In this document: positions 4,274-32,870 of the stretch, in pieces
How the letters are laid out: every line of letters starts with the position of its first letter
Position numbering within the stretch: position 1 is the first letter of the stretch
From: an uncultured Ignavibacteriales bacterium
Lineage (GTDB): Bacteria > Zixibacteria > MSB-5A5 > GN15 > FEB-12
Direction of reading: 5' to 3'
Length of the DNA: 64,000 bases
Assembly: GCA_964520865.1 (NCBI GenBank)
Contig: CAZFOY010000005.1
Coordinates: forward strand, 5,737 to 69,736
Position numbers and translations under genes: made by a program
The notes under the pieces: model-generated
The model's database searches: none
What the model saw: the letters and a program-made list of their open reading frames with translations, nothing else
Told to the model about the DNA's origin: nothing

Positions 4274-4731
4274 GACAGACTCTTCTCGTGCAATTCCCAG
4301 ACCAATAGCCAACTTTCTTTGAGCAGACTCCAGCCGACCGCACAGGCGATCATCCTTGCTCGAAGCTACTCTGTCTGTAACCGTTAAATCCGTTTAATGG
4401 TCTGTATAATAGTGACTTACACGTCCACAACGTAGTCGATACCAATCAGGCTATGACATTCCCCCCGTTGATTGGAACGCGAAGTGAGAAGAGAGAGAGA
4501 TAGTATGTTGAGAACTTCGAAGTCGAACTATGCAATCCCGCAACACGGTGCATAACAGTCAAATTTCTTGGAAAGGCTTCCTTAATCCTTTCGCTGGCGA
4601 CCTCGCGAAGAAACATCCTGTTTCCTGTCAAGTTATCGTGGGTCATTTTGTAGTTCCGGGATTCAGCATGTTAACTACTTATCTACCAAATTCTTAACAA
4701 TCAAGTGCCCGCTCGTGGCGGGGTAAGTAAT

Positions 4732-4761
4732 CCCCGGAAAGGGGGTTAACCCTTTCCGGGG
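4732..4761 (-). terminator. Perfect 12-bp-stem hairpin 20 nt downstream of the 4781..7369 gene (candidate intrinsic terminator)
   Basis: ccccggaaaggg (4732-4743), loop ggttaa, ccctttccgggg (4750-4761). The trailing sequence on the minus strand is ATTACTTACCC, only weakly U-rich. Confidence 0.5.
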
Positions 4762-4780
4762 TAAAAGTAAACCGATCAGG

Positions 4781-7369
4781 TTACTTCAGGAGGACCATCT
4801 TCTTGGTTTCGCTGAAGTTGTTGGCAGTCAACTTGTAGAAGTAGACGCCGGAAGCCTGAGCGGAAGCATCCCAACTGAATGAGTGCTCACCAGCTTCGAA
4901 CGAACCGTCGAAGGTCTTGACCAGCTGACCAGCTATGTTGTAGATGGACAGGCTGACCTGAGCCTTGACCGGCAGGCTGAAGCCGATGGTGGTCGTCGGG
5001 TTGAACGGGTTCGGGTAGTTCTGAGCCAGGCTGAAGTTAGCCGGGAGCAGTTTCGCGTTAACCGTCGCACCGTCGACCGAAGCGAACTCGGAGCTAATGA
5101 CGTTGCCATTGGCACTGAGGACGTTACCGTTGAAGGTGTTACCTTCCATGCTGAAGACCAGAGCGTGAGTCACGTTGGCTTCGCGATCGAAGGCATACTT
5201 CAGTTCCATGTTATCCGCATGGAGTACCGGGGTGACATCACCCTGGTAGGTCACGAGAGCGGCACCAACCGTACCGTTGACCACGACATTGCCGCCGTCA
5301 GCAGTATAGGTGATCGACGCCGGGGCGAGCTTCGGATAAGGAAGCGCGTCACCCTGGATGACACGAATCAGGTAGACCAGGTCGGCAACCGACAGGGTAA
5401 GACCGTCATTGTTGACATCGGTGGCGGCAATCTGTCCCTGGAGATTGATGTGGAAAACACCAATACCATAGACAAAATAGTTGGAGAAGAGAACCGCATC
5501 CGCGATTTCATACTTCACGTTGTTCAGGTTGATATCACCACGAGCGTCGATCGAGTCGGAGCAAGCGATGTTGATGCAACCGTTCTGGAAGCTGACCGCG
5601 GGATACGCAGTCTTCGCGCCGGAACCGCAAGTACCATCCTGCGGACCCTGGTAGGTCGGATAACCGACGGTACCGTCGATGATGTCAATACCGTTCGGCG
5701 GGTTTAGCGAAGCATCGCCGGTATAAATATGCTCGGCGATAAGCAGGCTGTCACCAGAGGCGGTGGAAAGGGCATTGTCGCCGCAATCCAGCCAGAAGAA
5801 CCGAATCGGAATGACCTGGCACTGGAAGGTGCGGTCGTTGGTAACCAGGAAGTCGAGATTGAACAGCGTGGACGGTTTCGGATCAGCCTCGAAGCAGGAC
5901 GGATGATTCGGACCATTGTTCGTCTCGGCAATCGCAGTCACACGGAGCAAGCCACTCGGGCAGGAGCCGGAGCAGTTACCATCGGCGCCGTAACGATAGG
6001 TGAAATATTCCCATCCGCAACCAGCCGGACCCCAATCGTCACCGATGGAGGCGGTCTGGAAGGACAGCGCAGAGTTATCATAAGCGATCAGCATGTCGTA
6101 ACCACCGATCGGACCACCCTGGGCGGCCAACTGGACCGGAACGATTACGTGCTGACCCTGGAAGACAAAGTTGCCGGACTGGTCGCCAACGCAAGGAATA
6201 ACGACCTGATACTGCGAACCAATGATGACTGTCACGTCGAATGTGCAAGTCGACGACAGATTGCCATCAGAGCCTTCGACAGTGATCGGCCAGGTGCCAC
6301 CGGTCTGACCGGCGTTGAGATGGATAGTTCCATTCGGATCAACGGTAACCGCGTTTCCAGCATCTGCGGCTAAGAAAGCAGCGGCATCACTCAGCGTGAA
6401 GGTAACCGGATCGCAATCGTCGGTAGCCGTAGCGCTGACTGTTGCGCCAGTGCCGTTGGACATGCTGACGTCACCCGGGCAGGTCACAACCGGAGCTTCG
6501 TTGGTGAAGTTCAGGTTGACTGTCGAAACTGCGGAGTTGCAACCGGCACCGGTAGCAACGATATCAACGCTTACAGAAGCACCGACATCAGCCAGGGTGG
6601 GCGAGTAGGACCACACACCGTTGGCGTCGATGGTACCGATAGAGGCCGTCCAGCCCGTGATCGGGTTCGGCGGAGTCTGCGGCGTGACTTCATGAGCGTC
6701 GAAATCAAAAGTCATGACATCGCAGTGGCTTCCGGTAAGGGAAGTCGGAGCATTGTCGATGACCGGGGGCTGGCACGGAGGAACGCCTGCGATATAGCAG
6801 TACGGGCCGCCCCATTCCGGAGCTTCACTGGGGTTTCCACCACCGGGAGCCCAAACCCAAGCATGGTTCGGCTTGGCCCAGGTGGAGTCGATACAAAGAG
6901 TCTCGCCTTCGGCAATGTTACCGGTGGCGATAGTCACTGAAGGAGCATCAAAACCGATCGGAAGACCATAACCGGTGCTTTTTGCACCGCCGACGCCGAC
7001 CGTGTCAGCACCAGCGCCGTCGTTGGCGCCGTAGCCGCTCGTGAAAGCAAAGATCAGCGCGAAGTGGTCGCCGGTTGTCCAGCCACCGCCGTCGGAACCT
7101 GGCCAGGGAAGAGTATCAATCACGGGAATCGTGAATGAACCGCCACCCATGGTGTAGACTTTCCAGGCGTTGTCAATACCACCGATCGTGTAAGGACGAT
7201 CGTTGGTATAACGCATCGTGAAGACCACCGGCGCGCCCGCGATAATCGAATCCGGGGTGCCGTAGGTGCTCGTCACGTTGTCTACTGAGATGCTCACGGC
7301 ATTGGCAAGCCCAAATGAAACGACTAAAGATGCCAGTACCAGGAAAAATGAAATACGTTTCATTTTCAT
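4781..7369 (-). CDS. Secreted Ig-like / cohesin-like / dockerin-like protein with T9SS C-terminal sorting domain
   Basis: MKMKRISFFLVLASLVVSFGLANA signal peptide, with AGGAG upstream (start may be the second ATG at 7363). Cohesin-like: QYQVVIPCVGDQSGNFVFQGQHVIVPVQLAAQGGPIGGYDMLIAYDNSALSF. Dockerin-like: DINLNNVKYEIADAVLF...DVNNDGLTLSVADLVYLIRVI (about nt 5345-5545). CTD: FSLAQNYPNPFNPTTTIGFSLP...GVYFYKLTANNFSETKKMVLLK. Confidence 0.9.
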   Translation of the reverse strand: MKMKRISFFLVLASLVVSFGLANAVSISVDNVTSTYGTPDSIIAGAPVVFTMRYTNDRPYTIGGIDNAWKVYTMGGGSFTIPVIDTLPWPGSDGGGWTTGDHFALIFAFTSGYGANDGAGADTVGVGGAKSTGYGLPIGFDAPSVTIATGNIAEGETLCIDSTWAKPNHAWVWAPGGGNPSEAPEWGGPYCYIAGVPPCQPPVIDNAPTSLTGSHCDVMTFDFDAHEVTPQTPPNPITGWTASIGTIDANGVWSYSPTLADVGASVSVDIVATGAGCNSAVSTVNLNFTNEAPVVTCPGDVSMSNGTGATVSATATDDCDPVTFTLSDAAAFLAADAGNAVTVDPNGTIHLNAGQTGGTWPITVEGSDGNLSSTCTFDVTVIIGSQYQVVIPCVGDQSGNFVFQGQHVIVPVQLAAQGGPIGGYDMLIAYDNSALSFQTASIGDDWGPAGCGWEYFTYRYGADGNCSGSCPSGLLRVTAIAETNNGPNHPSCFEADPKPSTLFNLDFLVTNDRTFQCQVIPIRFFWLDCGDNALSTASGDSLLIAEHIYTGDASLNPPNGIDIIDGTVGYPTYQGPQDGTCGSGAKTAYPAVSFQNGCINIACSDSIDARGDINLNNVKYEIADAVLFSNYFVYGIGVFHINLQGQIAATDVNNDGLTLSVADLVYLIRVIQGDALPYPKLAPASITYTADGGNVVVNGTVGAALVTYQGDVTPVLHADNMELKYAFDREANVTHALVFSMEGNTFNGNVLSANGNVISSEFASVDGATVNAKLLPANFSLAQNYPNPFNPTTTIGFSLPVKAQVSLSIYNIAGQLVKTFDGSFEAGEHSFSWDASAQASGVYFYKLTANNFSETKKMVLLK

Positions 7370-12000: not shown

Positions 12001-13566
12001 ATGGGCTGCCGCCTTATTTTCGCATTGGCGGTTTGGGGTGTGATGTCCGGCACCACTTGGGCTTCGCTGGGGTTGACACCTGAAAACTCGGTCATAATTC
12101 CGGAGATTACCGGCAACGTCCGCCAGGTTGGAATCGCCGACCTCGATCATGACGGGATCCTCGATCTGCTCGTCTGTGACAATCGGACAATCGTTGTCTA
12201 TTCGGTCGGCAGGGGATCAATCATCTTTCAATTTCATCTCGAATCGGATCCGCTCGATGTCGAGTTTCTTCTGGCCGATGTCAACGCCGACAGCATTCCT
12301 GATCTGGTCATCGGGCAGTACCTTGACTACCTACAAAAACCGCCGGATACGGTCTGCCGGATAGATCTGTTCGACGGCGCATCCGGCTTCGCTGGGCACG
12401 ATTCATGCTTCTATACAGCGAACCGCACTACTCCTGCGTCCTTTGGCGAACCGTTTCCATCGGTGGCACTGTCAGCTGGAGACTACGACGGCGATGGATT
12501 CAACGAACTCCGGGTGGCGTATCACCGGTACCAAACTCTAAACTTTTTTGGCACTGCTCGATTCAACAGTATCGGCGAAACGAGAACTTATCAGTCCTTC
12601 CCGACTTCGCCGCTCGACTCTATGCCGAGCTGCACCGATGCTCCTGTTCTCCTACGTACGGAAGATGGCCGTACACTTCAAGCAGTGACGAGGTATGAGG
12701 CTTCCGTGACCGCCGTCCCTTCGTCGGCAGAATACTCAACCACTCTGAGGTCTATGGTAGATGTCGTGAATGGTTCGGGGATGGCAGTAGCGACACTCGA
12801 AGATCACAGCAGCATGCCGTGCGTATCGGATTCGACTGAGCTGATAAGTATGTACCGGGCAGCAGAGGCAGGTAATCTGTATTCTTCGGACACGACCACC
12901 TCCGACTTACTGATCGATTACCGCGCCGCTTATCGCTGCTTCTCCGATGGTGCGGCCACTTTTGATTCCACCGAGCACACTTATCAGCTTTATCATCTTG
13001 ATGAATCTGACTCGCTGTTGTTTGTTCGGGAGATCCCGGACCTGGACGGCCTGGCGTGTCCGAAGTATCTCAAAGCGTATCCCCAGCAGTTGTTCGCCTT
13101 TGGTCGAAGCAGCGTCTATCAGGTTACGCCGCTCACGGGAAGTCTCGAGTCAATCGGCATTCTCCCCGACGTTGACACGATCTTGTGGAACAGCGGAACT
13201 GCGAATGCCGATTGCTTTGTCGTCGGAGTAAAGGGGAGCAAGATCGCCTGGCATCGAATCGATGAAGTGACCGATGTTCAAGATATCCCGGAAAACCTGC
13301 CTGACGGATTCGAGTTGGGGCGGATCTATCCCAACCCGTTCAACGCCGTGGTCACAATCCCGGTAACAATACCCCGGTCCGGACAGCTTTCCCTTGAGGT
13401 CTTCAATGTTCTGGGGCAATGCTTATATTCAATCGTGGACTCAAAGCAAGAGGCCGGAAGCAGGCTGTTCCGATGGGATGCGGGGAAATTCAGTTCAGGA
13501 GTCTACTTCGTTCGCGCGACGTTCGAAGGTCAGACCCGCACAACAAGAGCTGTCCTGCTCAAGTAA
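12001..13566 (+). CDS. Secreted FG-GAP/VCBS-repeat protein with T9SS C-terminal sorting domain
   Basis: Signal peptide MGCRLIFALAVWGVMSGTTWA. FG-GAP-like motifs: GIADLDHDGILDLLV, LLADVNADSIPDLVIG, AGDYDGDGFNELRV. CTD: FELGRIYPNPFNAVVTIPVTIP...GVYFVRATFEGQTRTTRAVLLK. Confidence 0.85.
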   Translation: MGCRLIFALAVWGVMSGTTWASLGLTPENSVIIPEITGNVRQVGIADLDHDGILDLLVCDNRTIVVYSVGRGSIIFQFHLESDPLDVEFLLADVNADSIPDLVIGQYLDYLQKPPDTVCRIDLFDGASGFAGHDSCFYTANRTTPASFGEPFPSVALSAGDYDGDGFNELRVAYHRYQTLNFFGTARFNSIGETRTYQSFPTSPLDSMPSCTDAPVLLRTEDGRTLQAVTRYEASVTAVPSSAEYSTTLRSMVDVVNGSGMAVATLEDHSSMPCVSDSTELISMYRAAEAGNLYSSDTTTSDLLIDYRAAYRCFSDGAATFDSTEHTYQLYHLDESDSLLFVREIPDLDGLACPKYLKAYPQQLFAFGRSSVYQVTPLTGSLESIGILPDVDTILWNSGTANADCFVVGVKGSKIAWHRIDEVTDVQDIPENLPDGFELGRIYPNPFNAVVTIPVTIPRSGQLSLEVFNVLGQCLYSIVDSKQEAGSRLFRWDAGKFSSGVYFVRATFEGQTRTTRAVLLK

Positions 13567-13587: not shown

Positions 13588-14496
13588 TTAGTACAGCCGT
13601 TCCCGTTTGGACAGGAAGGCGTAGAGGGCTTTGTCGAACGGCATGGCGGTGTCGATCGGAAAATAGTCGATATCGCTCTGCCGACAGGCGAGTGAGATCT
13701 CTTCGGCGAATGCCTTGACGTGCGCGGCGAAATCTTTCTTGATCTGATATGGAAGGGTAGTCAGTTCTTCGCCGGTCTCCATATCTTTGAAGACCGCCTC
13801 ACGCGGGAAGGCAAAGTCACGCTCGCGGGGATCGAGAATATGAAAGACGATGACCTCATGATTGTTGTACCGGAAGTGCTTCAGCCCGGAAATAATCTTA
13901 TCGGCGTCATCGAGCAGATCAGACAGGACTATCACCAACCCGCGTCGCTTGATCCGGTCGGCCATCTCATGCAGCGTGACTGAGACATCGGTTGTCTCCG
14001 AAGGATTCTGGCGGGCAATCTCATTGAGAATGACGTGCAAATGGCCCGATTTGGAGCGCGGCGGAATATATTTGCGGATCTGCTGGTCAAACGTCACCAG
14101 GCCGACCGCATCACGCTGACGAAGCATCATATACGAAAGTGCCCCGCAGAGCATTCCGGCGTAATCAAGTTTGCTGATCCGGTCGTCAGAGCGGTAAGCC
14201 ATCGAAGCTGAGCAGTCGAGCAAGAGATACCCCTTTAGGTTCGTTTCTTCTTCGTACTGCTTGATATAGAAGCGATCCGACTTGCCGTACACTTTCCAGT
14301 CGATATCGCGAATGCTGTCCCCCGGCATATACTGCCGGTGCTCGGCGAATTCAACCGAGAAGCCGTGGTACGGTGATTTGTGCAGGCCGGCGATGAATCC
14401 TTCAACCACCATGCGAGCCCGCATCTCCATCCCTTTGAGGCGGGAGACAATTTCCGGGTCGAGATATTTTCTGTAATCAGCGGCCATGGATACCAA
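13588..14496 (-). CDS. DUF58 (vWA-like) protein, usual partner of MoxR ATPases
   Basis: MRARMVVEGFIAGLHKSPYHGFSVEFAEHRQYMPGDSIRDIDWKVYGKSDRFYIKQYEEETNL is the canonical DUF58 N-terminal block. Confidence 0.9.
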   Translation of the reverse strand: MVSMAADYRKYLDPEIVSRLKGMEMRARMVVEGFIAGLHKSPYHGFSVEFAEHRQYMPGDSIRDIDWKVYGKSDRFYIKQYEEETNLKGYLLLDCSASMAYRSDDRISKLDYAGMLCGALSYMMLRQRDAVGLVTFDQQIRKYIPPRSKSGHLHVILNEIARQNPSETTDVSVTLHEMADRIKRRGLVIVLSDLLDDADKIISGLKHFRYNNHEVIVFHILDPRERDFAFPREAVFKDMETGEELTTLPYQIKKDFAAHVKAFAEEISLACRQSDIDYFPIDTAMPFDKALYAFLSKRERLY

Positions 14497-14497
14497 T

Positions 14498-15445
14498 TCA
14501 CTCTTTAAAGATGGCTACGGTGAGTTCTTTGCTTTCTGTCTTATACCCACGATACATCCCCTCGGTGTTGAAAGGGAGCGCAAAGTTGCAGTTTCGGTCG
14601 ATTGCGATCAGTCCGCCGGTACCACCGAGTCCGGTCAGTTTGTCTTTGATCACGAATTCAGCCGCTTCGGCCAGTGACAATCCTTTGTATTCCATCAGGG
14701 CATGCACGTGAAAGGCGGCGCAGGCGGTAATGAAATACTCACCATGCCCGGTGGACGAAACGGCGCAGGTCGCGTTATTGGCGTAGGTCCCTGCCCCAAC
14801 AATGGGTGAATCGCCCAGTCTGGTGTATCGTTTGTTGGTCATCCCTCCGGACGATGTCGCGGCCGCAAGATTTCCTTCGCGGTCGACTGCCACTGCACCG
14901 ACTGTGCCGTGCTTCTCGTCCGGAGTATGATCGAGCTGAGTGTGAGTCTTCTTCGAGGCTTCCTCCCGGCGGATGGCGTTCTGGAGCTGCCGCCAGCGCT
15001 GGTCGGTATAGAAATACTTGTCATCAACCAGCTTCATCCCCTGTTCTTTAGCGAACGCCTCGGCGCCATCGCAGGCCAGCAGGATATGCTCAGACCTGTC
15101 CATCACGAGTCGGGCAAGATCGATCGGATTGGCGATATGCCGTATCCCGGCCACCGCCCCGGAGTTGAGCGTCTTGCCGTCCATGATCGAAGCATCCTGT
15201 TCGTTGGTCCCTTCGTGCGTGAAGACCGCTCCCTTGCCGGCGTTGAATAGCGGACAGTCTTCCATTACATTGACAGCCGCCTGAACGGCATCAATGCCGG
15301 CGCCGTCCTTCGCCAGAACCTCGTACCCTGCTTCAATCGATTGAGTCAGGGCGGTCCGATACTCGTTTTCCATCTCCGGAGTCATCATGGTCCGAAGAAT
15401 CGTACCGGCTCCGCCGTGAATGACTATGCCAATTTGCGAAGACAC
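14498..15445 (-). CDS. Isoaspartyl peptidase / L-asparaginase (Ntn-hydrolase, plant-type asparaginase family)
   Basis: GIVIHGGAGT near the N-terminus. Autocleavage/nucleophile region DEKHGTVGAVAVD, then GGMTNKRYTRLGDSPIVGAG. GTG start, 1 nt from the downstream DUF58 gene. Confidence 0.9.
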   Translation of the reverse strand: MSSQIGIVIHGGAGTILRTMMTPEMENEYRTALTQSIEAGYEVLAKDGAGIDAVQAAVNVMEDCPLFNAGKGAVFTHEGTNEQDASIMDGKTLNSGAVAGIRHIANPIDLARLVMDRSEHILLACDGAEAFAKEQGMKLVDDKYFYTDQRWRQLQNAIRREEASKKTHTQLDHTPDEKHGTVGAVAVDREGNLAAATSSGGMTNKRYTRLGDSPIVGAGTYANNATCAVSSTGHGEYFITACAAFHVHALMEYKGLSLAEAAEFVIKDKLTGLGGTGGLIAIDRNCNFALPFNTEGMYRGYKTESKELTVAIFKE

Positions 15446-15451
15446 CTATAT

Positions 15452-16192
15452 TCAGTCCTTAGCTTTCGGTCGCTCAGTCTCGGCAGATGCATCGCCGCCT
15501 GATTTTGCGAGGTCGATGAATATGAGAAACGACATGTAGATAATAACAACCAGCAGTGTGACGCCGCTGATTGACAGAAGATCATCGAAGATCGAGTAGA
15601 ATCCCCACCCGGTCAGACCTATGTTGTGCCCCAGCACGGCGATACCGAATATCCAGTAGACATATTTCTTGGTACGGGGGGGAGCCGACGAGAACAAGAA
15701 GATCGCGCCGAGCGCGAAGAAAAGCAGCGTCTGTCCGTTGATATGAGTATGGGCCAGTCCGACGTTTCTCCGGAGATGCGTGAGCTGGTCCGGCGTTTCA
15801 TCGTCTTTGTCGCCGTCGTAACCGGACATGTCGATAGTCCGGTCACCGGACTCCTGCTCTCCGATCGCTTTCTTGACGGTAGAACTTTCTTCGGGAGAGG
15901 CCGTATCGAGATTGACTTCCTGCCCCTTCATCGTGGTATCCCAGATAGGGGCAAGTACCGCCGAAGAATCGTCATCGGTTATGTCCTCGACATCCTGCGG
16001 GAAATCGGAGGAATCGGCCGGTTGCGAATTATCCTGAGTGAGATAAGCCGGCAGATGGTTCGTATCTACCACGCCCTCATCGACATAATATATGAATGCC
16101 GCCCAGAGGGTGACGAAAAGCATTAGTGCGGTGAAAATAGCAACGAACAGCTTGCCGAAACCGGGAAGGTCAGACAGGCGATAGTTAAACAT
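15452..16192 (-). CDS. Integral membrane protein of unknown function with an acidic extracytoplasmic loop
   Basis: One N-terminal and about three C-terminal hydrophobic helices flank a D/E-rich segment (QPADSSDFPQDVEDITDDDSS...). Tightly packed between moxR and the asparaginase gene. No family recognised. Confidence 0.65.
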   Translation of the reverse strand: MFNYRLSDLPGFGKLFVAIFTALMLFVTLWAAFIYYVDEGVVDTNHLPAYLTQDNSQPADSSDFPQDVEDITDDDSSAVLAPIWDTTMKGQEVNLDTASPEESSTVKKAIGEQESGDRTIDMSGYDGDKDDETPDQLTHLRRNVGLAHTHINGQTLLFFALGAIFLFSSAPPRTKKYVYWIFGIAVLGHNIGLTGWGFYSIFDDLLSISGVTLLVVIIYMSFLIFIDLAKSGGDASAETERPKAKD

Positions 16193-16240
16193 AGATTATA
16201 CCTGAAATCGTGATACGGTCACACCCTACGCCCGGCGTAC

Positions 16241-17260
16241 TCAAGCCTTCTCCTTAACCGACTCGAGCAATCGCTTGATGATCTCCATCGAATCGACACC
16301 ATCAGCTTCGGCATTGAACGAAGTCACGATTCTGTGCCGAAGGACCGGATAGGCGGCGAAGCGGACGTCTTCCGGACCGGGAGTCGGCCTCCCTTCGAGA
16401 ATCGCTTTCGTCTTGGCCGCGAGAATGAGATACTGCGACGCGCGCGGTCCGGCACCCCAGTTCACCCAGTTCTTCACGAACTCAGGTGCGGTCGGTTCAT
16501 TCGGACGGGTCGCCCGAACGAGTGAAACGGCATATTCAATTAAGTGATCCGACACCGGCACTCTTCGCACGAGCTGCTGGAATCCGACAATATCTTCAGC
16601 CGAGAGGATCCGCTCAAGTTCGTAACTTAGTACGGCCGTAGTCGATTTCACGATTGACTGTTCTTCGGAAGAGGAAGGATAGTCAACGAACACGTTGAAC
16701 ATGAACCGGTCGAGCTGAGCTTCGGGAAGCGGATAAGTTCCTTCCTGTTCGATCGGGTTCTGGGTCGCCAGCACGAAGAAAGGTTCGTCGAGTTTGTATG
16801 TCGCGCCGGCCGCGGTGACCTCGTGCTCCTGCATTGCCTGAAGCAAAGCGGCCTGGGTTTTCGGAGGGGTGCGGTTGATTTCGTCGGCCAGGATGATGTT
16901 CGCGAATACCGGTCCTTTGACGAATCGGAACTGGCGCTTGCCGGTCGCGCGATCGTCGTCGATGATTTCCGTACCGGTGATATCCGACGGCATCAGGTCC
17001 GGCGTAAACTGAATGCGATTGAACTCAAGGTTCAGGACCCGGGCGAGCGTGGAAATGAGGAGGGTCTTGGCCAGTCCCGGCACGCCGACCAGAAGGCAGT
17101 GACCGGAGGACAAAAGCGAAATGAGTAGTTGCTCGATAACCTTTTCCTGACCGATGATAACCTTACCGATTTCTCCTTTGATGCGCTCATAGGCGGAATT
17201 GAGATTCTCAACGGCAGTCAGATCCGAGCGGACCTCTTGTGCAGACATCGACTCCTCCAT
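16241..17260 (-). CDS. moxR: MoxR-family AAA+ ATPase
   Basis: Walker A LLVGVPGLAKT, Walker B ILADEINR, then the typical MoxR continuation PPKTQAALLQAMQEHEVT...FFVLATQNPIEQEGTYPLPEAQLDRF. Confidence 0.93.
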   Translation of the reverse strand: MEESMSAQEVRSDLTAVENLNSAYERIKGEIGKVIIGQEKVIEQLLISLLSSGHCLLVGVPGLAKTLLISTLARVLNLEFNRIQFTPDLMPSDITGTEIIDDDRATGKRQFRFVKGPVFANIILADEINRTPPKTQAALLQAMQEHEVTAAGATYKLDEPFFVLATQNPIEQEGTYPLPEAQLDRFMFNVFVDYPSSSEEQSIVKSTTAVLSYELERILSAEDIVGFQQLVRRVPVSDHLIEYAVSLVRATRPNEPTAPEFVKNWVNWGAGPRASQYLILAAKTKAILEGRPTPGPEDVRFAAYPVLRHRIVTSFNAEADGVDSMEIIKRLLESVKEKA

Positions 17261-17400
17261 TCATAGTATGCGGCTCTATTTTGCGGTGTAATATCCCTTA
17301 TACAAGATTTACCGATCAAGATTGCGTGCAAGGGCTGGATTGTCAAAGTATTTCGTGGCGGGGAGGGGGAATCAACTTTCCAGAGGGAAAGACGTTAACC

Positions 17401-17592
17401 GGCTCAGATCATACTTTACTTAACTTATCAATTCTAAATCAAAAATAAACATGAGGTTAATATGCGATCTGGCTGTGGATAAACGAACGATGCAGTCCAC
17501 GATAACGACTGATTATGTCATTGTGTATGAATGACATAATCAGTTATCCACAATTTACGCCAGTTGTCCACAAACAGGGCTGTTTATCAACA
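17401..17592. other. Candidate chromosomal replication origin (oriC): AT-rich tract plus DnaA-box cluster
   Basis: Perfect DnaA boxes: TGTGGATAA 17474-17482 (reverse orientation) and TTATCCACA 17544-17552. One-mismatch boxes: TTGTCCACA 17564-17572 and TTATCAACA 17584-17592. The last three share orientation and are exactly 20 bp apart. AT-rich stretch at 17404-17462 (atactttacttaacttatcaattctaaatcaaaaataaac). Lies at the end of the rpmH...parAB gene block. Confidence 0.55.
17509..17543. repeat. Perfect 14-bp inverted repeat (7-nt spacer) abutting a DnaA box
   Basis: ctgattatgtcatt (17509-17522), gtgtatg, aatgacataatcag (17530-17543). The flanking gataac/gttatc extends it imperfectly to about 20 bp. 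Confidence 0.8.
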
Positions 17593-17596
17593 ATCC

Positions 17597-18040
17597 TTAG
17601 AACTTCTTCTTCTGATCGGAGGCGTATTCTTCTTCCTTGACCGCCTTTTCCACCGGCTTTTCCGGGGCGAGGAAACCGAGGTTCGGCTTGGTGTCTTTCA
17701 TATTGCAGGCACCGCAGAAGACCGCGCCCTGTTCGATCACCAGCGACTTGGTCCGTAAATCGCCTTCCATCTCACACTTAGCCTGAAGCTCTATCTTCTC
17801 GGTCGTGGTCACATTCCCGACCATCCGGCCGGCGATTATTGCGGAATCGGCTTCGATCTCAGCCTCAACCAACCCGGTGGCGCCAACCGTGACACAGTCC
17901 GAGCAGAGAATCTTCCCCTTCACTGTGCCGTCAACTCTCAAAGCTCCCTTGATGTCCAGTGTCCCGGTGATTACTGTGTCTTTCCCAATAATTGTGTTCA
18001 TCAAACCATCCACTTCGTTATTGTTGGTTTTTTTTATCAT
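17597..18040 (-). CDS. Bactofilin (polymer-forming cytoskeletal protein, DUF583)
   Basis: DTVITGTLDIKGALRVDGTVKGKILCSDCVTVGATGLVEAEIEADSAIIAGRMVGNV...EGDLRTKSLVIEQGAVFCG is the bactofilin beta-helix repeat pattern. An alternative start at M14 (18001) would remove the 23-nt overlap with the upstream gene. Confidence 0.9.
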   Translation of the reverse strand: MIKKTNNNEVDGLMNTIIGKDTVITGTLDIKGALRVDGTVKGKILCSDCVTVGATGLVEAEIEADSAIIAGRMVGNVTTTEKIELQAKCEMEGDLRTKSLVIEQGAVFCGACNMKDTKPNLGFLAPEKPVEKAVKEEEYASDQKKKF

Positions 18041-18806
18041 AAGGATTTTCCAATGGATCTATAGGTTCATCGTTTATCCTGATCTCATAGTGAAGATGCG
18101 GCGCGGTCGAGATGCCGGTATTGCCGCTGAGGGCAAGACGGGCGCCAGCCATCACCTTCTGTCCTTTCTTCACGAGCAGTTGCTCATTGTGTCCGTACAC
18201 CGTCTCCACGCTGTCGTTGTGCCGCAAGACCACCATGTATCCATAGGTGGAATCGTAATCCGCAAACTCAACCGTACCCGAAGCGGTCGCGAGGACCGGT
18301 GTCCCGATCGCACAGGCGATGTCTATCCCAGGATGATAGTGGTTATCATTCGCCGTGTCAAAGTCCTGAGTTATGAATCCTTGTATCGGCATTCCCGAGG
18401 GTAAAGATAAGTTGTCGGCGAGCGGTCGATCGACCGTAGCCCCTTCTTTTTGCTCCACCGAAGCGAAAATCGTGGAATCATCGGGTATTTCAGGGAAATC
18501 GATATTTATTCCGGCAATCTGGGTCAACCGTGTGACGATTTCGCGCGCTTTCACGAGATTGTCTTCGAGCAGCTGAACTTTATACTGATAGCGGAGCAGA
18601 CGTTGATTCTCGCGGGCGAGTTTGTCGGCTGTCGCGGCGCGCGTTAACACTTTGCCGTAGAACGCAAAGAAGACGATAATCCCGACAATCAGGAATGCTA
18701 TGAAACCGAGCACGAACTTGAGCACCCACTGCTTGATCCGAAATCCGCGCCTGCTCTCCGCACCGTCGGGGATCAGCATCACCGTAACATATTTGGATGC
18801 AGCCAT
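18018..18806 (-). CDS. M23 (LytM-type) metallopeptidase with N-terminal membrane anchor and coiled coil
   Basis: HPGIDIA and GNTGISTAPHLHYEIRIN zinc-binding motifs. TM segment FVLGFIAFLIVGIIVFFAFY. The ATG at 18806 lies 2 nt after the parB stop. Confidence 0.9.
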   Translation of the reverse strand: MAASKYVTVMLIPDGAESRRGFRIKQWVLKFVLGFIAFLIVGIIVFFAFYGKVLTRAATADKLARENQRLLRYQYKVQLLEDNLVKAREIVTRLTQIAGINIDFPEIPDDSTIFASVEQKEGATVDRPLADNLSLPSGMPIQGFITQDFDTANDNHYHPGIDIACAIGTPVLATASGTVEFADYDSTYGYMVVLRHNDSVETVYGHNEQLLVKKGQKVMAGARLALSGNTGISTAPHLHYEIRINDEPIDPLENPYDKKNQQ

Positions 18807-18808
18807 GT

Positions 18809-19657
18809 CTAACTTTCGATCTTCTTGAACAGCTCCAGCAGTCGCTCGAGGTCGTCGTCTCCATAGTATTCGATTTCGATCCGGCCTTGTTTCAGTCCCG
18901 GGTTGATTTTTACCGAGGTACCGAGCAGACGCTTCAAATAGTTTTCGAACTCGGTGAGGGCCGGAATCTTCTTTTTCGGAATCAGCCGGCGCTTTTTCGT
19001 TCGGCTGGTCACATGCTCCACTTCGCGCACCGACATCGAATCATTCACGATCTGTTCCGCCAGCTTGACCATCTCGACTTCGTTGTCGAGCGCAAGGATC
19101 GCGCGGGCGTGCCCTTCGGTCAGCTTGCCATGACGGATCATCGATTTGATCGAATCGGGAAGGGTGTTCAATCGAAGCATGTTGGTAACGGCGGAGCGGC
19201 TCCGGCCGACGCGGTCGCCCAGTTGCGCCTGGGTCAGGCCGCACTCTTCGATCAGCCGACGATATCCTTCGGCCGTTTCCATCGGGTTGAGATTCTCGCG
19301 CTGCAGGTTCTCGACCAGCGCCATCTCGAGCATCTGTGTGTCGGAGACGTCGTCCATCTGCAGCACCGGGACCTCGGTCATGCCGGCCAGACGGGCCGCG
19401 CGATAACGCCGTTCCCCCGCGATAATGGTAAACCCGGACCCATTAGGTCGAACAAGCAGCGGCTGCATGATGCCGTTCTCCTTGAACGACTGCGCCAGCT
19501 GCATCAGGCTCTCCTGGTCGAACTCCCGACGCGGCTGCATCGGGTTGGGTGCGATCCGGTCGAGCGAGATCGTCTTGAGTCTGCGCGTTTCTGCCGTCTG
19601 CGTATCGTCAGCGGGGATAAGCGCCCCGAGTCCTTTTCCTAATACCAGCTTGCTCAT
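18809..19657 (-). CDS. parB: Chromosome partitioning protein ParB (Spo0J)
   Basis: GKGLGALIP, PNPMQPRREFDQESLMQLAQSFKENGIMQPLLVRP...IIAGERRYRAARLAG, HTH region GLTQAQLGDRVGRSRSAVTNMLRL. Confidence 0.95.
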   Translation of the reverse strand: MSKLVLGKGLGALIPADDTQTAETRRLKTISLDRIAPNPMQPRREFDQESLMQLAQSFKENGIMQPLLVRPNGSGFTIIAGERRYRAARLAGMTEVPVLQMDDVSDTQMLEMALVENLQRENLNPMETAEGYRRLIEECGLTQAQLGDRVGRSRSAVTNMLRLNTLPDSIKSMIRHGKLTEGHARAILALDNEVEMVKLAEQIVNDSMSVREVEHVTSRTKKRRLIPKKKIPALTEFENYLKRLLGTSVKINPGLKQGRIEIEYYGDDDLERLLELFKKIES

Positions 19658-20412
19658 TGTGACAACACCTCTTTGGTAAGTGACATGTAATTTTCCGCTC
19701 CGGTCGACAGGATATCGTACAGGATGATCGGTTTGCCGAACGAAGGTGCTTCGGAGAGGCGCACGTTGCGCGAGATGACCGTGTCGTACACCTTCTTGTT
19801 GAAATGCTTGCGCACCTCTTCGGAAACCTGCCGCGACAGATTCAACCGGCCGTCGAACATCGTCAGCAGCACTCCTTCGATCTGCAGGGTCGGATTCAAA
19901 TTATCCTGCACCAGTTTCACCGTGTTCATCAGCTGCCCGAGTCCTTCGAGGGCATAGTACTCGCACTGAATTGGTACGATGATCGAGTCGGCCGCCGTCA
20001 ACGAATTAATCGTCAGCAGTCCGAGCGAAGGGGGACAGTCAATGATGATGTATTCGTATTCGTCTTTGATCTCGGAGAGTGCACTCTTCAGTCTCGTCTC
20101 GCGGGCGATCATACTCACCAGCTCGACTTCGGCGCCGACCAGGGAGATCGACGACGGCACCAGGGTGAGGTACTGAAGATCGGTGGCCCGGATAACTTCG
20201 CGGATCGGCCGCGCCCCCAGAAGGATATCATAGACCGATGATTCTATTTTGTTCTTATCGACTCCGAGCCCGCTGGTCGAGTTGGCCTGCGGGTCCATAT
20301 CGATCAAGCAGGTCTTGTGCTCGGCCGCCGCCAGGCAGGAGCTGAGATTGATAGCCGTTGTCGTTTTTCCCACACCACCCTTTTGATTGGTAATGGCGAT
20401 TATTTTATTCAC
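19654..20412 (-). CDS. parA: Chromosome partitioning ATPase ParA (Soj)
   Basis: Deviant Walker A NQKGGVGKTTT. ParA-typical DMDPQANST, IIIDCPPSLG. 4-nt overlap with parB. Confidence 0.95.
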   Translation of the reverse strand: MNKIIAITNQKGGVGKTTTAINLSSCLAAAEHKTCLIDMDPQANSTSGLGVDKNKIESSVYDILLGARPIREVIRATDLQYLTLVPSSISLVGAEVELVSMIARETRLKSALSEIKDEYEYIIIDCPPSLGLLTINSLTAADSIIVPIQCEYYALEGLGQLMNTVKLVQDNLNPTLQIEGVLLTMFDGRLNLSRQVSEEVRKHFNKKVYDTVISRNVRLSEAPSFGKPIILYDILSTGAENYMSLTKEVLSQ

Positions 20413-20501
20413 CTAACACTCCTTGTTACGCATATCAAGCTATCCCAAAAGAGATTAAACTGCCTCAAAATACGAATCAACTAAAAAACTCAAGCCTTGC
20501 A

Positions 20502-21125
20502 CTACTTTCTTGTCATAAGCGTAAATGACTTCGCTACATCGGACTCCCCCGACCGATATCTGACCGTCTCGGCACGAATTGAACCCGGAAGGTTCAACCC
20601 CTCGGGCGAAGCATAGTAGATGAAACTCCCGCGGTCGGCAAGACAGGGAAGGATCTTCTTCAGCAGCGGGGGGGTGAGGCGGACGAGGCGGAGAGTGATC
20701 AGATCGAACGAGCTGGGCGACTTGAATTCTTCAAATGTCCTGTTTTCGATTCTTATATTACTGCCGGACAATTCACTCAGCGACGATGTTATCCGATCCA
20801 AAGCCGCTGCTTTCTTAGTCGTTCGTTCCACCAGGACGGCCTCGCCTATCGGCTGAGTGAGCAGGATCGGAAAGGCGGGGAATCCGCCGCCAGTCCCGAT
20901 ATCAAGGTAATGGGAAACCGGACCGGAATCGATCAAATCGAACGGAAGTAAAGACTCGGCAGTCAGCCGCCTGAGATCATCGCGCGATGTTTCACGTGAA
21001 ACCAGGTTGACCCGGGAATTTTCTTCAAGAAGGGCATCGAAATACGATTCGAGCTTTCCCGCCGGATCATACTTCTCCAAAACGGAAGCAATATCGAGCG
21101 TAATCTCTCGGAAAGCAGGAATCAT
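20502..21125 (-). CDS. rsmG: 16S rRNA (guanine527-N7)-methyltransferase RsmG (GidB)
   Basis: NSRVNLVSRETSRDDLRRLTAESLL...YLDIGTGGGFPAFPI is the GidB pattern. 4-nt overlap with mnmG. Confidence 0.9.
   Translation of the reverse strand: MIPAFREITLDIASVLEKYDPAGKLESYFDALLEENSRVNLVSRETSRDDLRRLTAESLLPFDLIDSGPVSHYLDIGTGGGFPAFPILLTQPIGEAVLVERTTKKAAALDRITSSLSELSGSNIRIENRTFEEFKSPSSFDLITLRLVRLTPPLLKKILPCLADRGSFIYYASPEGLNLPGSIRAETVRYRSGESDVAKSFTLMTRK
20988..21003. promoter_or_regulatory. parS centromere-like site (15/16 match to TGTTTCACGTGAAACA)
   Basis: TGTTTCACGTGAAACC inside the rsmG coding region, 0.6 kb from parA. Confidence 0.65.
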
Positions 21126-23114: not shown

Positions 23115-23130
23115 TGTTTCACGTGGAACG
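23115..23130. promoter_or_regulatory. parS-like site (14/16 match)
   Basis: TGTTTCACGTGGAACG in the mnmE-mnmG intergenic spacer. Confidence 0.45.
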
Positions 23131-29544: not shown

Positions 29545-32091
29545 CTAAAACAGCTCCAGCTTGAGTTGGCCGTAGAACGATCGGGTTGACGCAATGTAAT
29601 ACTCCGCCCATCCGTCGACAACCGTTCTGCCATTGTCGTCGTAGGCGAAATCACCGCCGTAGCCCGAAGTCTCGAACTTCTTGTCGAACAGATTGTCGAT
29701 CTTCCCTTCGAACACCAAATTCCCCGCACCGAGCAGATTGCCGATCGTATACGACGCTGATATGGCCGAGACGGTGAATGGATCTACCGCGAGACTCTCT
29801 ACATTCCAGAGTTCGGCGTACTGCTTGCCGGCGTACCTCAGGCGATAGGTAACGCGCGCCCGGCCCGTCTTGTAGTCGAGAAGCACATTTCCGAGATAAT
29901 CGGGAAAGAACGGAATCGTTTTGTCTTTGTAGTCGACACTGAATCCATCGACATCGGCTACAAAATCCCTCACCCGATTGTAGCTGTAAGCGAAGTTAGT
30001 GCTCACCGTGAACTTCGGATTGAACTGATACGCTCCATTCAGCTCAACTCCCGCGTGCACCGAGCGCTTCGCATTGATCGTTATAGCAATACCGGTGTTC
30101 GGATTGATTCCGCCGTACGGCAGGATTTCGTTCTTGAACTCCATCCAGTAGAAATTGACGCCCAACGAATATCTTCCCGGTCGGTAGTTGCTCCCCAACT
30201 CCAGATCGTAAACGCGCTCCGATTTCGCTGTCGGATCTCCAAATTGGTATGTTGTTACTCCGTTTGAAACGGTAGAGTCGAGAATGGTCAGCGAAGGGAC
30301 CACGCTCGGATCGCCGGCGTCATAAATGGCGGCATCGCTTGGCGTGCGGGATGCTATCGAGAAGTTGGTATAGAGATTGAGGGCGTCATTGCAGGCATAG
30401 TTGAATCCGATTCGTGGCGAGAAGAACGCCCAGTTGACATTATATTTGTATCCGGGGAACGGAAGCATCCGCTCCTGGTCGAAATCGTATTTTAGGAATC
30501 TGAACTGTGCCGTCACCTGCGTGCTCAGCTTGTCGTTGAACTTGTAGTACTCCTGACCGTAGATGGAGCCGACATACTTCTTCCCGTTGTACTGATAATA
30601 TCTGTGGCGCGGATCGAGCGACCCGGTGACATGCTCGGCGTACACCACCTGTCCCCAGTGATCTGAATTGAAATAGTAGAAAGAACCTCCGATAGAGTGT
30701 TTCCCTCGGCTCCAGATCATGTCCAGTCGGGGATTCCAGCCGGTCTGATTCTTGTTCACCCACTGCTGACGAACGACATTGCCGGAATCGTACGGCATCG
30801 AAGTCGCGGGGTTGATATCGATGTACGTGCTGTCGATACCGTAGTCTGATAACGCGCTATTCGCCTTCAGCTGCTCGTAGTAGCCGTCGCCATGGATATG
30901 GTAGAGGGTATTGTAGAGTGTGATGCGATCGGTTAAGCGATATGTATTTTGCAACTGATAGTGGGGCTGATTGAAATTGTCCGTCTCGTTGTCGTAGGTC
31001 AGCGGATTGTAGCGATAGTCTTTCGCAATCTCATCGCGCGGCGCACCGTAATACGCCAGGTGCATACGCATCGGGCCGCCGTAGACGTACAGCTCGGTCG
31101 TCATCCTCGGATCGAGGCGGGCGAGCGAGAAATAGTACGACCAACCGTCATACCAGCTGTCGTGGCGAAATCCCCCCGTGCGTTGTTTGGAGAACCGTCC
31201 GCCGAATTGCCAGGTCCCGTTGATGAGACCGGACGAGTACTCGACCGACTGCTTGTACATATCGCTAATTCGATTGCCGTTGAATGTATAGTCGCCGTAG
31301 CCGGAGACAATCGAAGCTTCGCGCTGGTTGCTCAGTGCGCTGGTAACAATGTTGACCGTCCCGCCGAACGAAGCATCGCCGTAGAGCGAATTCCCCACCC
31401 CGCGCTGGATCTGAATATCTGAGACGTTGGCGGCGAAATCGGGCAGATCGACAAAATAGGTGGCCTGGTCTTCCGGATCGTTCAGCGGCACGCCGTTGAT
31501 GTACGTCACGATCCGCTTGTCATCAAATCCGCGGATCTTCATGTAGCTGTAGCCGAGCGAAGATCCGGCGTCGGAATAGGCATACAGGTTCGGCGTCGAT
31601 TCGAGAAGAAGCGGGAATTCATCGACCGTGTAGTCACGCTTGATATCATCCTGAGAGAAATTGTCGAATGCGATCGGGGTGATCCCTTCTTCGGCCCGGT
31701 CTGAGCGCACGAGAATGTCCTGACCGCGGTAGTATCGTGGCTGAAGAACGACGAGACTCGGTACTTTGGTCAGCTCGAATTGTTTCGAGAGGAAGCCGAC
31801 CGAAGAAAACGTAAGGCGCGAGACACCTTCGGGCAAAGACAGCGAATACTTGCCGTTTGCATCGGTGATCGTACCGACGCCGGAGAGATTGGTGACGACC
31901 GAGGCTCCGACAATCGGATCTCCATTTTGATCGGCGACAGTGCCGGTGGCTGTTTCAGTTGCGCGTGCGGCCCCGACAAGAAGGAGCAAAGCGACAATTG
32001 GGAGGCAGAATTGGACAATGAATCTCATTCGAATCGCTCGAACGAGTGCGGAATCGAGCGGTCTGCTCGACTGTGAGAGTTTGTGGGTCAT
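29545..32091 (-). CDS. TonB-dependent outer-membrane receptor with N-terminal carboxypeptidase-regulatory-like domain
   Basis: GTVADQNGDPIVGASVV...GKYSLSLPEG (CarbopepD_reg-like). Plug: IRGFDDKRIVTYINGVPLNDPE...IQRGVGNSLYGDASFGGTVNI. Barrel ending ...YGQLKLELF. GAGG 9 nt before the ATG at 32091. Confidence 0.92.
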   Translation of the reverse strand: MTHKLSQSSRPLDSALVRAIRMRFIVQFCLPIVALLLLVGAARATETATGTVADQNGDPIVGASVVTNLSGVGTITDANGKYSLSLPEGVSRLTFSSVGFLSKQFELTKVPSLVVLQPRYYRGQDILVRSDRAEEGITPIAFDNFSQDDIKRDYTVDEFPLLLESTPNLYAYSDAGSSLGYSYMKIRGFDDKRIVTYINGVPLNDPEDQATYFVDLPDFAANVSDIQIQRGVGNSLYGDASFGGTVNIVTSALSNQREASIVSGYGDYTFNGNRISDMYKQSVEYSSGLINGTWQFGGRFSKQRTGGFRHDSWYDGWSYYFSLARLDPRMTTELYVYGGPMRMHLAYYGAPRDEIAKDYRYNPLTYDNETDNFNQPHYQLQNTYRLTDRITLYNTLYHIHGDGYYEQLKANSALSDYGIDSTYIDINPATSMPYDSGNVVRQQWVNKNQTGWNPRLDMIWSRGKHSIGGSFYYFNSDHWGQVVYAEHVTGSLDPRHRYYQYNGKKYVGSIYGQEYYKFNDKLSTQVTAQFRFLKYDFDQERMLPFPGYKYNVNWAFFSPRIGFNYACNDALNLYTNFSIASRTPSDAAIYDAGDPSVVPSLTILDSTVSNGVTTYQFGDPTAKSERVYDLELGSNYRPGRYSLGVNFYWMEFKNEILPYGGINPNTGIAITINAKRSVHAGVELNGAYQFNPKFTVSTNFAYSYNRVRDFVADVDGFSVDYKDKTIPFFPDYLGNVLLDYKTGRARVTYRLRYAGKQYAELWNVESLAVDPFTVSAISASYTIGNLLGAGNLVFEGKIDNLFDKKFETSGYGGDFAYDDNGRTVVDGWAEYYIASTRSFYGQLKLELF

Positions 32092-32189
32092 GACAGTAAC
32101 CTCGCTTAGAACGCTTCAGGGTTAAGCAAGATTCCGTCCTGAATCGATAGGTCGGCCAGATACTGGCTCAGGGGATGCGGTTGACATCT

Positions 32190-32270
32190 CCGTTTCCCTA
32201 CGCCGGTATTATCCGGATCAGGTCGAGGGGGTATGATCTCAGGCGGTCGTTATTACGCCACCCCCAACGG
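32190..32270 (-). promoter_or_regulatory. TPP (THI-box) riboswitch aptamer
   Basis: Minus-strand RNA: CCGUUGGGGGUGGCGUAAUAACGACCGCCUGAGAUCAUACCCCCUCGACCUGAUCCGGAUAAUACCGGCGUAGGGAAACGG. It contains the conserved GGGGUG, CUGAGA, ACCC, ACCUGAUC-GGAUAAU-CC-GCGUAGGGAA blocks and a closing P1 (CCGUU/AACGG), about 98 nt upstream of the receptor ATG. Confidence 0.9.
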
Positions 32271-32441
32271 AATTTGTGTTTCTGGGAATAATTACGGCCC
32301 GGCCCGACGGAAAGGCAAGGGGAAAATGCAGGATCCCGATCACTCAGCAGATCGTTTTGGCATGCCCCGAGCCGGCCTATGATTCGGTGAGACGATACGT
32401 ATAGTAGATAGTATCCGAGAATAGACACCAGGAGGTCGGAT

Positions 32442-32870
32442 TTGGAAAGAGATAAGCTGATTGAATTCACTGTCTTCCTATTACGCGTGGTTGTGGGACT
32501 GCTGTTCTTCCAGCACGGGAGTATGAAGTTCCTCGGCTGGTTCGGCGGCATGCCGGGCGGTGAGCCGGGCGCCACGGCACCCTTATTCACGCAGGTTGGG
32601 CTGGCCGGCGTGCTCGAGTTCTTCGGCGGAATTGCGATTATGTTTGGATTGTTCACCCGCACTGTGTCATTCATCCTGTGCGGTGAAATGGCTGTTGCTT
32701 ACTGGCAATTCCATTTCCCACAGGGAACCTGGCCGATCGTCAATCATGGTGAGCCGGCCGTCCTCTTTTGTTTCATTTTCTTGTTCCTGGCGGCCTATGG
32801 AGGGGGCAATTGGAGTGTCGATGCACTGATCCGTCGAAAGGGGACCAAAACGGTTCCTGATCCCGCTTAG
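32442..32870 (+). CDS. DoxX-family membrane protein
   Basis: LRVVVGLLFFQHGSMKFLGWFGG...GVLEFFGGIAIMFGLFTR. TTG start with AGGAGG 6 nt upstream. Confidence 0.85.
   Translation: MERDKLIEFTVFLLRVVVGLLFFQHGSMKFLGWFGGMPGGEPGATAPLFTQVGLAGVLEFFGGIAIMFGLFTRTVSFILCGEMAVAYWQFHFPQGTWPIVNHGEPAVLFCFIFLFLAAYGGGNWSVDALIRRKGTKTVPDPA

Follow-up and report, generated by a model that had tools for sequence, protein, structure and literature searches.

A conserved three-box DnaA element with a candidate bending site at the parAB-bactofilin gene end of Zixibacteria

Directly after the parA-parB-M23 peptidase-bactofilin genes of Zixibacteria lies a small non-coding element in which three DnaA boxes, two direct (B and C) and one inverted (D), keep a fixed geometry around a palindrome that resembles a site for a DNA-bending protein. 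That the element is functional and under strong selection is clear and well supported, since it is conserved across the phylum, and DnaA almost certainly binds it. We tentatively describe it as a phylum-conserved module of three boxes, organised by a bend site and tied to the partition/bactofilin gene end, that acts either in DnaA regulation or as a replication origin. To a site outside the origin that controls DnaA, or is linked to partition, we give an even chance.

To our knowledge, the details of replication control have been worked out in only a handful of cultured model bacteria, and the accessory loci for DnaA (datA, DARS and the Bacillus clusters) are regarded as lineage-specific additions. 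Should the element be an origin, its three boxes, its lack of DnaA-trios and its firing head-on into rpmH-parB would make it an unusually minimal oriC, and it would offer a compact, testable origin for bacteria not yet grown. Should it not be one, it would represent the first locus of the datA/DARS kind to be conserved throughout a phylum, would carry a symmetric site to which a homodimeric IHF-like protein binds, and would imply that sites of DnaA control can have an ancient history and a connection with chromosome segregation. Both the 20/70-bp geometry and the symmetric palindrome lend themselves to direct, inexpensive in vitro experiments with recombinant DnaA and HU/IHF homologues.

Boxes and gene neighbourhood in the window

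The window, that is, the whole 64-kb stretch of DNA analysed, carries four DnaA boxes exactly where a first-pass annotation of this DNA had placed them (Table 1; primed letters denote the boxes as they stand in the window). As that annotation also stated, the last three boxes share one orientation with their starts exactly 20 bp apart, and the 13-mer CAGTTRTCCACAA occurs twice. The start of D' lies exactly 70 bp from that of C', and boxes C and D are exact reverse complements of each other. C' and D' are the only perfect DnaA boxes in the 64 kb. When up to one mismatch is allowed, the window contains 18 boxes, compared with 9.4 ± 3.0 in shuffled sequences, and four of them fall within 119 bp, an arrangement with a Poisson probability of approximately 4e-9 per 119-bp stretch and approximately 2e-6 for the whole window. 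These four boxes, three of them conserved, form a non-coding DnaA-box cluster of the kind by which origins are recognised, and being the sole such cluster in the 64 kb they provide one argument for an origin at this place. A second argument comes from the neighbouring AT-rich tract, whose description was likewise accurate: its A+T content is 78%, compared with 46% for the window, and is unmatched by any other stretch of 59 bp there. That the richest AT tract of the window flanks box D, on the side that is correct for an unwinding element, favours the origin and speaks against a control site.

Table 1. Positions of the element and of neighbouring features in the window.
Feature	Position	Strand	Remarks
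Whole spacer, bactofilin stop (17597) to MoxR start (17260)	17261..17596		336 bp
AT-rich tract, candidate unwinding element	17404..17462		On the D' side, as expected for an unwinding element
Palindrome 2	17434..17460		Weaker second motif copy; 13-16 bp beyond D'; score 10.3
Box D' TGTGGATAA (plus-strand letters)	17474..17482	-	Perfect DnaA box, inverted relative to A'-C'
Palindrome 1, TAWSnnnTTGnnnnnCAAnnnnWTA	17514..17538		25 bp; putative homodimeric IHF/HU-like site
Box C' TTATCCACA	17544..17552	+	Perfect DnaA box; start 20 bp from B'
Box B' TTGTCCACA	17564..17572	+	Outer of the two conserved direct DnaA boxes
Box A' TTATCAACA	17584..17592	+	One-mismatch DnaA box; bactofilin stop codon 4 bp away
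parA-parB-M23 peptidase-bactofilin genes	17597..20412	-	Assigned with Pfam; transcription runs into the element
parS-like site TGTTTCACGTGAAACC	20988..21003		1 mismatch; inside rsmG
parS-like site TGTTTCACGTGGAACG	23115..23130		2 mismatches; mnmE-mnmG spacer

Using Pfam we recovered the origin-proximal gene set reported for this region, in the order rnpA-yidD-yidC-mnmE-mnmG-rsmG-parA-parB, with all genes on the minus strand. The M23 peptidase and bactofilin genes that follow parB, neither of which the first-pass annotation had named, were identified in the same way, and a gene for a MoxR-type ATPase begins on the far side of the spacer. The rpmH gene itself was called only on an identical contig (L001), and upstream of it lies greA, not dnaA. 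Of the genes that usually indicate an origin, parAB, rsmG, mnmG and rpmH are neighbours of the element and dnaA and dnaN are not; the element stands at the 3' end of the set and not at its rpmH end. Two parS-like sites, 3.4 and 5.5 kb from the element, were confirmed, compared with 0.21 matches expected in the window, and their presence beside a conserved origin-proximal gene set is again in line with an origin. Within the 336-bp spacer no parS-like 16-mer was found with up to three mismatches allowed, the closest one being that at 3.4 kb.

Conservation of the geometry and of the palindromes

A ParB search, reduced to one genome per species, assigned the window to the candidate phylum Zixibacteria and yielded 19 relatives with 58-94% ParB identity, two of them with closed chromosomes. 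All 19 loci have the genes from rnpA to bactofilin in unchanged order, and MoxR comes next in nearly all of them. The triad with the same 20-bp and 70-bp spacing is present in 17 of the 18 ParB-found genomes that include the spacer; in the closed chromosomes it is located at ~3,145,617-3,145,715 (complement) of CP070756.1 and at ~1,390,227-1,390,325 of OY760907.1. Read on the par strand, box B has the consensus TGTGGAnAA, with T, G, T, G, A and A invariant in 18 genomes, and box C, which starts 20 bp after B, the consensus TGTGGAtAA, with TGTGGA-A invariant in the same number. Box D (TTaTCCACA on this strand) starts 70 bp after C and is inverted in every genome. The interval between C and D measures 61 bp in 17 of 18 genomes, with zero length changes, and the length of the whole spacer in the relatives ranges from 240 to 490 bp. 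The exception, locus L015, displays a different two-box arrangement in a 243-bp spacer and counts against an origin at this position. Box A' is shared only by the closest relatives (the window, L001-L004 and L126) and does not appear as a conserved column among 68 non-redundant sequences.

This deep conservation with fixed geometry would be natural for oriC, and it is the first point against a control site, since it is much deeper than that of accessory DnaA loci and such as an essential element would show; the accessory loci known to us are conserved only within families or orders. A second point of the same kind comes from the scarcity of comparable clusters. Clusters of at least three boxes were absent from 58 parB loci of Verrucomicrobia (approximately 870 kb) used as a control, and in three Firmicutes control loci they were present at dnaA. 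A metagenome scan using the geometry alone, with the pattern TGTNGANA-N12-TGTGGANA-N62-TTNTCCACA, returned 115 contigs, about 62 of which show the Zixibacteria gene order. Most of the remaining contigs carry dense classical origins from other phyla, situated beside dnaA or in the dnaA-dnaN spacer. Among these controls and the inspected metagenome contexts, clusters of at least three good boxes otherwise occur only at true origins.

The same classical origins also show how much the Zixibacteria element differs from them. They contain 8-14 perfect boxes, clear runs of TAG/CTA trinucleotides and AT stretches of 85-100%, and the element is far sparser, with three conserved boxes. Further weak DnaA boxes conserved in register between or beside the triad were not found, the mean number of matches being about 4 of 9 or fewer, and the element has no conserved array of weak sites. 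Outside palindrome 1 the sequence between C and D is unconserved, the remaining 30 bp being fixed in length only. A constant 61-bp length combined with free sequence is more readily explained by a looping constraint than by an array of weak sites, and we take the geometry to suggest a looped complex.

The element does not depend on the gene that follows it. In four loci (L082, L108, L138 and L171) a convergent gene, in two of them encoding a CRP/FNR-like regulator, replaces MoxR; the triad is kept and the spacer stays at 300-445 bp. Because the triad persists beside a convergent downstream gene, the element belongs to the par-bactofilin end and is not an operator of MoxR.

Boxes aside, strong conservation between C and D is confined to palindrome 1. 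Its centre is located 26 bp after the start of C, and it is invariant in the 18 ParB-found genomes; among the 68 non-redundant sequences, positions A35, T57 and T42, which were not forced by the search pattern, are kept in 100%, 98% and 95%, respectively. In the window the palindrome forms part of a longer, perfect inverted repeat with 14-bp arms (17509-17522 and 17530-17543), and the corresponding single-strand hairpin in this genome has a predicted energy of -18.4 kcal/mol (z = -4.35). Each half of the palindrome reads CAA-N4-WTA and fits the CARNNNNTTR core of the IHF consensus WATCARNNNNTTR. The inner TT/G and CA/A steps are 9 bp apart, as are the two kinks of IHF (PMC9519438). Palindrome 1 may thus consist of two inverted IHF-like half-sites for a homodimeric IHF/HU-like bending protein. 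The palindrome bases are fixed without covariation, which argues for a dimeric DNA-binding protein rather than an RNA stem.

The motif recurs on the other side of box D. In 34 of the 68 sequences the best match to it lies at offsets 111-114, where palindrome 2 is found, and 49 of the 68 score above the 95th percentile of shuffled sequences; a third copy follows approximately 65 bp beyond palindrome 2 in some sequences. Palindrome 2 is overlapped by a predicted sigma-70-like promoter that runs from 17460 to 17431 on the minus strand, towards MoxR. In the window as a whole the motif is enriched about four-fold, mostly in other spacers, and the factor that binds it is probably a general one.

From these features we propose that the element may serve as a platform of fixed geometry for DnaA at the 3' end of the parAB-M23 peptidase-bactofilin set of Zixibacteria. 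DnaA would occupy the two direct boxes B and C, 20 bp apart, and the inverted box D, 70 bp from C, and a dimeric IHF/HU-like protein on the palindrome just after C would bend the DNA sharply. The bend would bring the DnaA bound at D alongside that bound at B and C, giving a small, defined DnaA complex. Such a complex would most likely have DnaA itself, or the partition region close by, as its target and would not open DNA for replication, in a role comparable to those of datA and DARS in Escherichia coli, the DnaA-box clusters of Bacillus subtilis and the centromere DnaA boxes of Caulobacter.

The element as a candidate origin

The principal alternative, which we consider rather unlikely although clearly stronger than any other, is that the element is the chromosomal oriC of Zixibacteria, separated from dnaA, at which DnaA bound to B, C and D together with a bending protein would open the tract at 17404-17462 and launch bidirectional forks. 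This was the proposal of the first-pass annotation, whose description of the boxes and of the AT-rich DNA is correct; the step from there to oriC finds no support in the DnaA-trios, the base skew, the small number of boxes or the orientation of the genes.

The absence of dnaA from the surroundings, also reported there, was borne out. Neither dnaA nor dnaN occurs in the window or in the 5 kb past its right end, and none was found within 10 kb of parB in any of the 19 relatives. The same DnaA search recovered dnaA in the three Firmicutes loci, which served as a positive control, and the result is compatible with an origin that has become detached from dnaA. A look-up of the leftmost large protein, made while seeking dnaA, gave no match. 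One contig of the scan, L109, carries a box pair at 70 bp beside dnaA-dnaN and was considered as a dnaA locus of Zixibacteria; it was rejected, as its gene content (an EF-P gene beside an EarP-like gene, gyrB, topA and the DnaA sequence itself) points to a beta- or gammaproteobacterium. The genome paper on RBG-1 mentions neither an origin nor a skew.

The AT-rich flank varies among the relatives. Beyond box D the DNA is very AT-rich in the window and in L002, L003 and L014, and moderately so in most other relatives. In 10 of 14 related loci a 50-bp stretch of the spacer ranks among the top four of the 20-kb locus in A+T content, often directly beyond box D, which would suit an unwinding element. 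Against this, in the L006 clade and in L020 the flank has only 45-55% A+T, not exceeding background, and no AT-rich tract is present in L082 and L108.

The basal unwinding system of bacterial origins consists of a DnaA box pair, DnaA-trios and AT-rich DNA (PMC8287927). The orientation of box D agrees with it, in that trios and the AT tract would lie on the outer side. Following the published rule (a minimum of three NAN repeats no more than 16 bp from a box, on the strand that the box's orientation dictates; PMC8287927), with the orientation taken from R1 of E. coli and checked on the classical origins of the metagenome scan, we found trios to the right of D in 47% of the 68 sequences, compared with 48% of shuffles, and to the left of B in 22%, compared with 35%. 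The trios near both outer boxes are thus at the level of chance, and the direct boxes of Zixibacteria have 11 bp between them instead of at most 3 bp, whereas the unwinding system is plain in the origins from other phyla caught by the scan. Read off the sequence of the window, a run of five trios begins 18 nt from D.

Base skew offers no help to the origin either. The 64-kb window has no GC-skew minimum at 17.5 kb, and 13 of 14 genomes show no change from negative to positive skew across the spacer. What looked like a switch in L016 vanishes once gene strand is considered. In a regression of third-position skew on gene strand, a single-direction model (residual sum of squares 492) fits better than an origin at the spacer (534) or no model (581), although gene-specific composition confounds what is a weak signal. 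These tests span 20-64 kb, and we count their outcome as a lack of support for an origin at the spacer and not as disproof.

The direction of the genes is a further difficulty. From rpmH to MoxR they all read one way through the element, so that a fork leaving an origin at this place would meet at least 10 genes head-on, rpmH, rnpA and yidC among them; some lineages have flanking genes that converge on the element. In every well-studied case known to us, the gene set is read away from the origin. The ancestral position of the origin is the rpmH end of the set, and the element occupies the parB end. The chance frequency of trios, the lack of a conserved strong AT element, the missing skew switch and the one-way genes together favour a non-origin role.

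The plan of the oriC of E. coli bears on both sides of this question. It combines convergent box arrays with an IHF site (PMC5742627), and the element resembles it in its facing boxes, in a putative IHF-type site just inside a strong box, in a spacing that is fixed across relatives and in being detached from dnaA near mnmG/rsmG; mioC is transcribed into oriC as the par-side gene is transcribed into the element. The E. coli origin differs in its 12 boxes, conserved weak sites among them, in its AT-rich 13-mer repeats and in gidA reading away from it (PMC5742627), whereas the Zixibacteria element has three conserved boxes, no conserved weak sites, a variable AT flank and the genes from mnmG to parB reading in.

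Known DnaA-control loci, transcription and RNA structure

Three boxes with a bend site appear, by analogy, to match parts of known DnaA-control loci. Minimal datA consists of three essential boxes with a single IHF site. It follows a tRNA operon, read-through from which controls the binding of IHF, and looping by IHF has been proposed to join the DnaA bound on both sides (PMC5742627, PMC10950094). The Zixibacteria element likewise has three boxes, with a putative IHF-type site between them, just downstream of a transcription unit. It departs from datA in the orientation of its boxes, since the essential boxes of datA all point in one direction (PMC5742627) and box D is inverted in every Zixibacteria genome. 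In the MG1655 sequence the starts of datA boxes 2 and 3 are 162 bp apart. The single IHF site of datA contrasts with two or three copies of the palindrome motif here, where the IHF/HU-like site is putative. As far as we know, conservation of datA does not extend beyond close relatives of E. coli.

The core of DARS also contains three boxes, one of them opposed, with identical spacing in DARS1 and DARS2, and DARS2 needs IHF (PMC5742627). A three-box core with one inverted box is what we find in Zixibacteria, with B and C in direct orientation and D opposed to them. DARS is compact, the starts of boxes I and II being 14 bp apart in E. coli, compared with 20 and 70 bp between the starts of the Zixibacteria boxes, and in the latter the bend site sits between C and the inverted box. 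Since orientation and spacing together equal neither those of datA nor those of DARS, the comparison also weighs against a control site.

For a link to partition, the nearest parallel is Caulobacter crescentus, where, as related in PMC6399470 from the work of Mera et al. (2014), DnaA boxes at the centromere/par locus approximately 8 kb from the origin act on segregation and not on unwinding. Both cases place DnaA boxes at a par locus. The Caulobacter boxes lie within the parS region, whereas the parS-like site closest to the Zixibacteria element is 3.4 kb away.

In B. subtilis, DnaA-box clusters occur outside oriC, one of them within the gene set from rpmH to mnmG, and we know of no fixed geometry or bend site in these clusters. 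They are non-coding and origin-proximal and, according to work cited in PMC5742627, repress untimely initiation. The element resembles them as an origin-proximal, non-coding group of DnaA boxes that, on the preferred reading, lies outside oriC. It shares its list of parts with oriC, datA, DARS and the Caulobacter boxes and is a member of none of these classes.

An improbable alternative is a transcriptional one, in which DnaA at the element acts as a roadblock or terminator of the par-bactofilin transcript, or as an operator of MoxR, and couples expression to the cell cycle. The element occupies precisely the gap that separates the end of one gene set from the beginning of the next, the bactofilin transcript has no predicted intrinsic terminator, and copies of the palindrome motif are found in other promoter-bearing spacers of the window (4394, 4671, 20432, 34988, 40531 and 58768). 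DnaA roadblocks also exist at gene ends of E. coli, at asnC and at datA box 2 (PMC10950094). A roadblock, however, needs neither three boxes nor an inverted partner at 70 bp nor a bend site, and a MoxR promoter operator is ruled out because the boxes are kept where a convergent gene, CRP/FNR-like or other, takes the place of MoxR. A transcriptional role could coexist with either the control-site or the oriC reading.

A structured RNA or DNA hairpin, such as a 3' UTR element or a terminator, with the boxes as stem arms, is very improbable: the reverse complementarity of C and D, the good fold in this genome and some variant pairs compatible with G-U pairing on the par strand are outweighed by the lack of any match to an Rfam 15 family (best E-value 2.9, far below gathering scores), by a consensus fold reduced to a trivial C-D stem with a covariation term of -0.19 kcal/mol and variable pairs broken in 3-4 of 18 sequences, by the lack of a terminator-like site on the par strand, by an inner hairpin conserved as fixed palindrome bases with no compensatory change, and by direct box B (and A here), whose 20-bp phasing a stem would leave unexplained.

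A high-scoring copy of the palindrome motif inside mnmE, conserved in eight genomes, is explained by the coding sequence of the GTPase G4 motif.

Gene context of the element and the par locus

In the window and in 19 of 19 related Zixibacteria loci found through a ParB search (L002-L020), parB is followed directly by genes for an M23 peptidase and a bactofilin, an arrangement that hints at a link between partition and cell shape or polar scaffolding in these bacteria. The pair is reminiscent of the cell-shape genes of Helicobacter, and the position of the bactofilin beside parAB is reminiscent of Myxococcus. A DivIVA-domain protein, whose gene adjoins that of a YggS-like PLP-binding protein, adds a further polar or cell-division scaffold to the neighbourhood of the par genes.

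The genes that follow the element, which holds three conserved DnaA boxes, look like the beginning of a MoxR-VWA gene set of the Bat-like kind. Among them, the 246-aa protein belongs to no Pfam family, and the gene for the asparaginase_2-type enzyme is inserted in some lineages only. In two Zixibacteria lineages, represented by the metagenome contigs L082 and L108, the MoxR gene set is replaced by a convergent gene for a CRP/FNR-family regulator, located right after the box triad.

On the coding strand, the third-position GC skew ranges from +0.03 to +0.10 for bactofilin, parB, parA and rsmG (17597-21125) vs a mean of -0.08 for the other window genes, almost all of which are negative. The value for parB is positive in the relatives too. 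The positive skew of the par region is a gene-specific feature of codon usage, and as such it can mimic a local change in skew.

Features of the window and of the sequences L082, L108 and L200 (regulator coordinates on L082 and L108 are in pattern-forward orientation)
Feature	Sequence	Coordinates	Strand	Details
M23 peptidase and bactofilin genes	window	17597-18806	-	
MoxR AAA+ ATPase; 246-aa protein; asparaginase_2-type enzyme; DUF58/VWA protein	window	13588-17260	-	after the element
CRP/FNR-family regulator	L082	2714-3385		
CRP/FNR-family regulator	L108	2392-3195		
DivIVA-domain protein	window	43502-44617	+	371 aa; ~26 kb from the par genes
TPP riboswitch	window	32178-32275	-	Rfam RF00059, 74 bits, E = 1e-12
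TonB-dependent receptor	window	29545-32091		
Listed ORF	window	32198-32674		
Region with type IX-sorted large proteins	window	1808-7369		
Region with type IX-sorted large proteins	window	12001-13566		
Region with type IX-sorted large proteins	L200	1112-5158		

The palindrome beyond the element

Further spacer copies of the 25-bp palindrome TAWSnnnTTGnnnnnCAAnnnnWTA lie at 4394, 4671, 20432, 34988, 40531 and 58768, including one 20 bp upstream of parA and one upstream of a Rex-like gene. These copies, together with an excess of matches in the window (11-15 per strand vs 1-5 in shuffles), suggest that the palindrome is recognised by a general protein that binds or bends DNA at many places. A very high-scoring match inside mnmE (23499-25), conserved at this position in 8 relatives, falls on the codons of the GTPase G4 motif (LLGNKLD) and hence most likely reflects constraint on the coding sequence.

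Origins of other phyla

The metagenome pattern scan also returned textbook origins beside dnaA from other phyla on 12 contigs, human-gut contigs among them (L083, L085, L090, L094, L104, L110, L118, L122, L130, L141, L162 and L173). Their 8-14 perfect boxes form two convergent arrays, and they also have a G+C-rich spacer followed by TAG or CTA trinucleotide runs, and pure AT stretches. For the basal unwinding system, they offer useful positive examples from bacteria that have not been cultured.

Transport and surface proteins

Downstream of the TPP riboswitch lie the genes for a TonB-dependent receptor and a sodium:solute symporter, which suggests thiamine-related uptake. The listed ORF is probably not a real gene, because the riboswitch overlaps it. 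Several large proteins bear type IX secretion C-terminal sorting domains, accompanied by cohesin, FG-GAP and Ig-like domains. These sorting domains fit an assignment to the FCB group, as do an HmuY-like protein of the window and two TonB-dependent receptors, also in the window, whose N-terminus is carboxypeptidase-regulatory-like.
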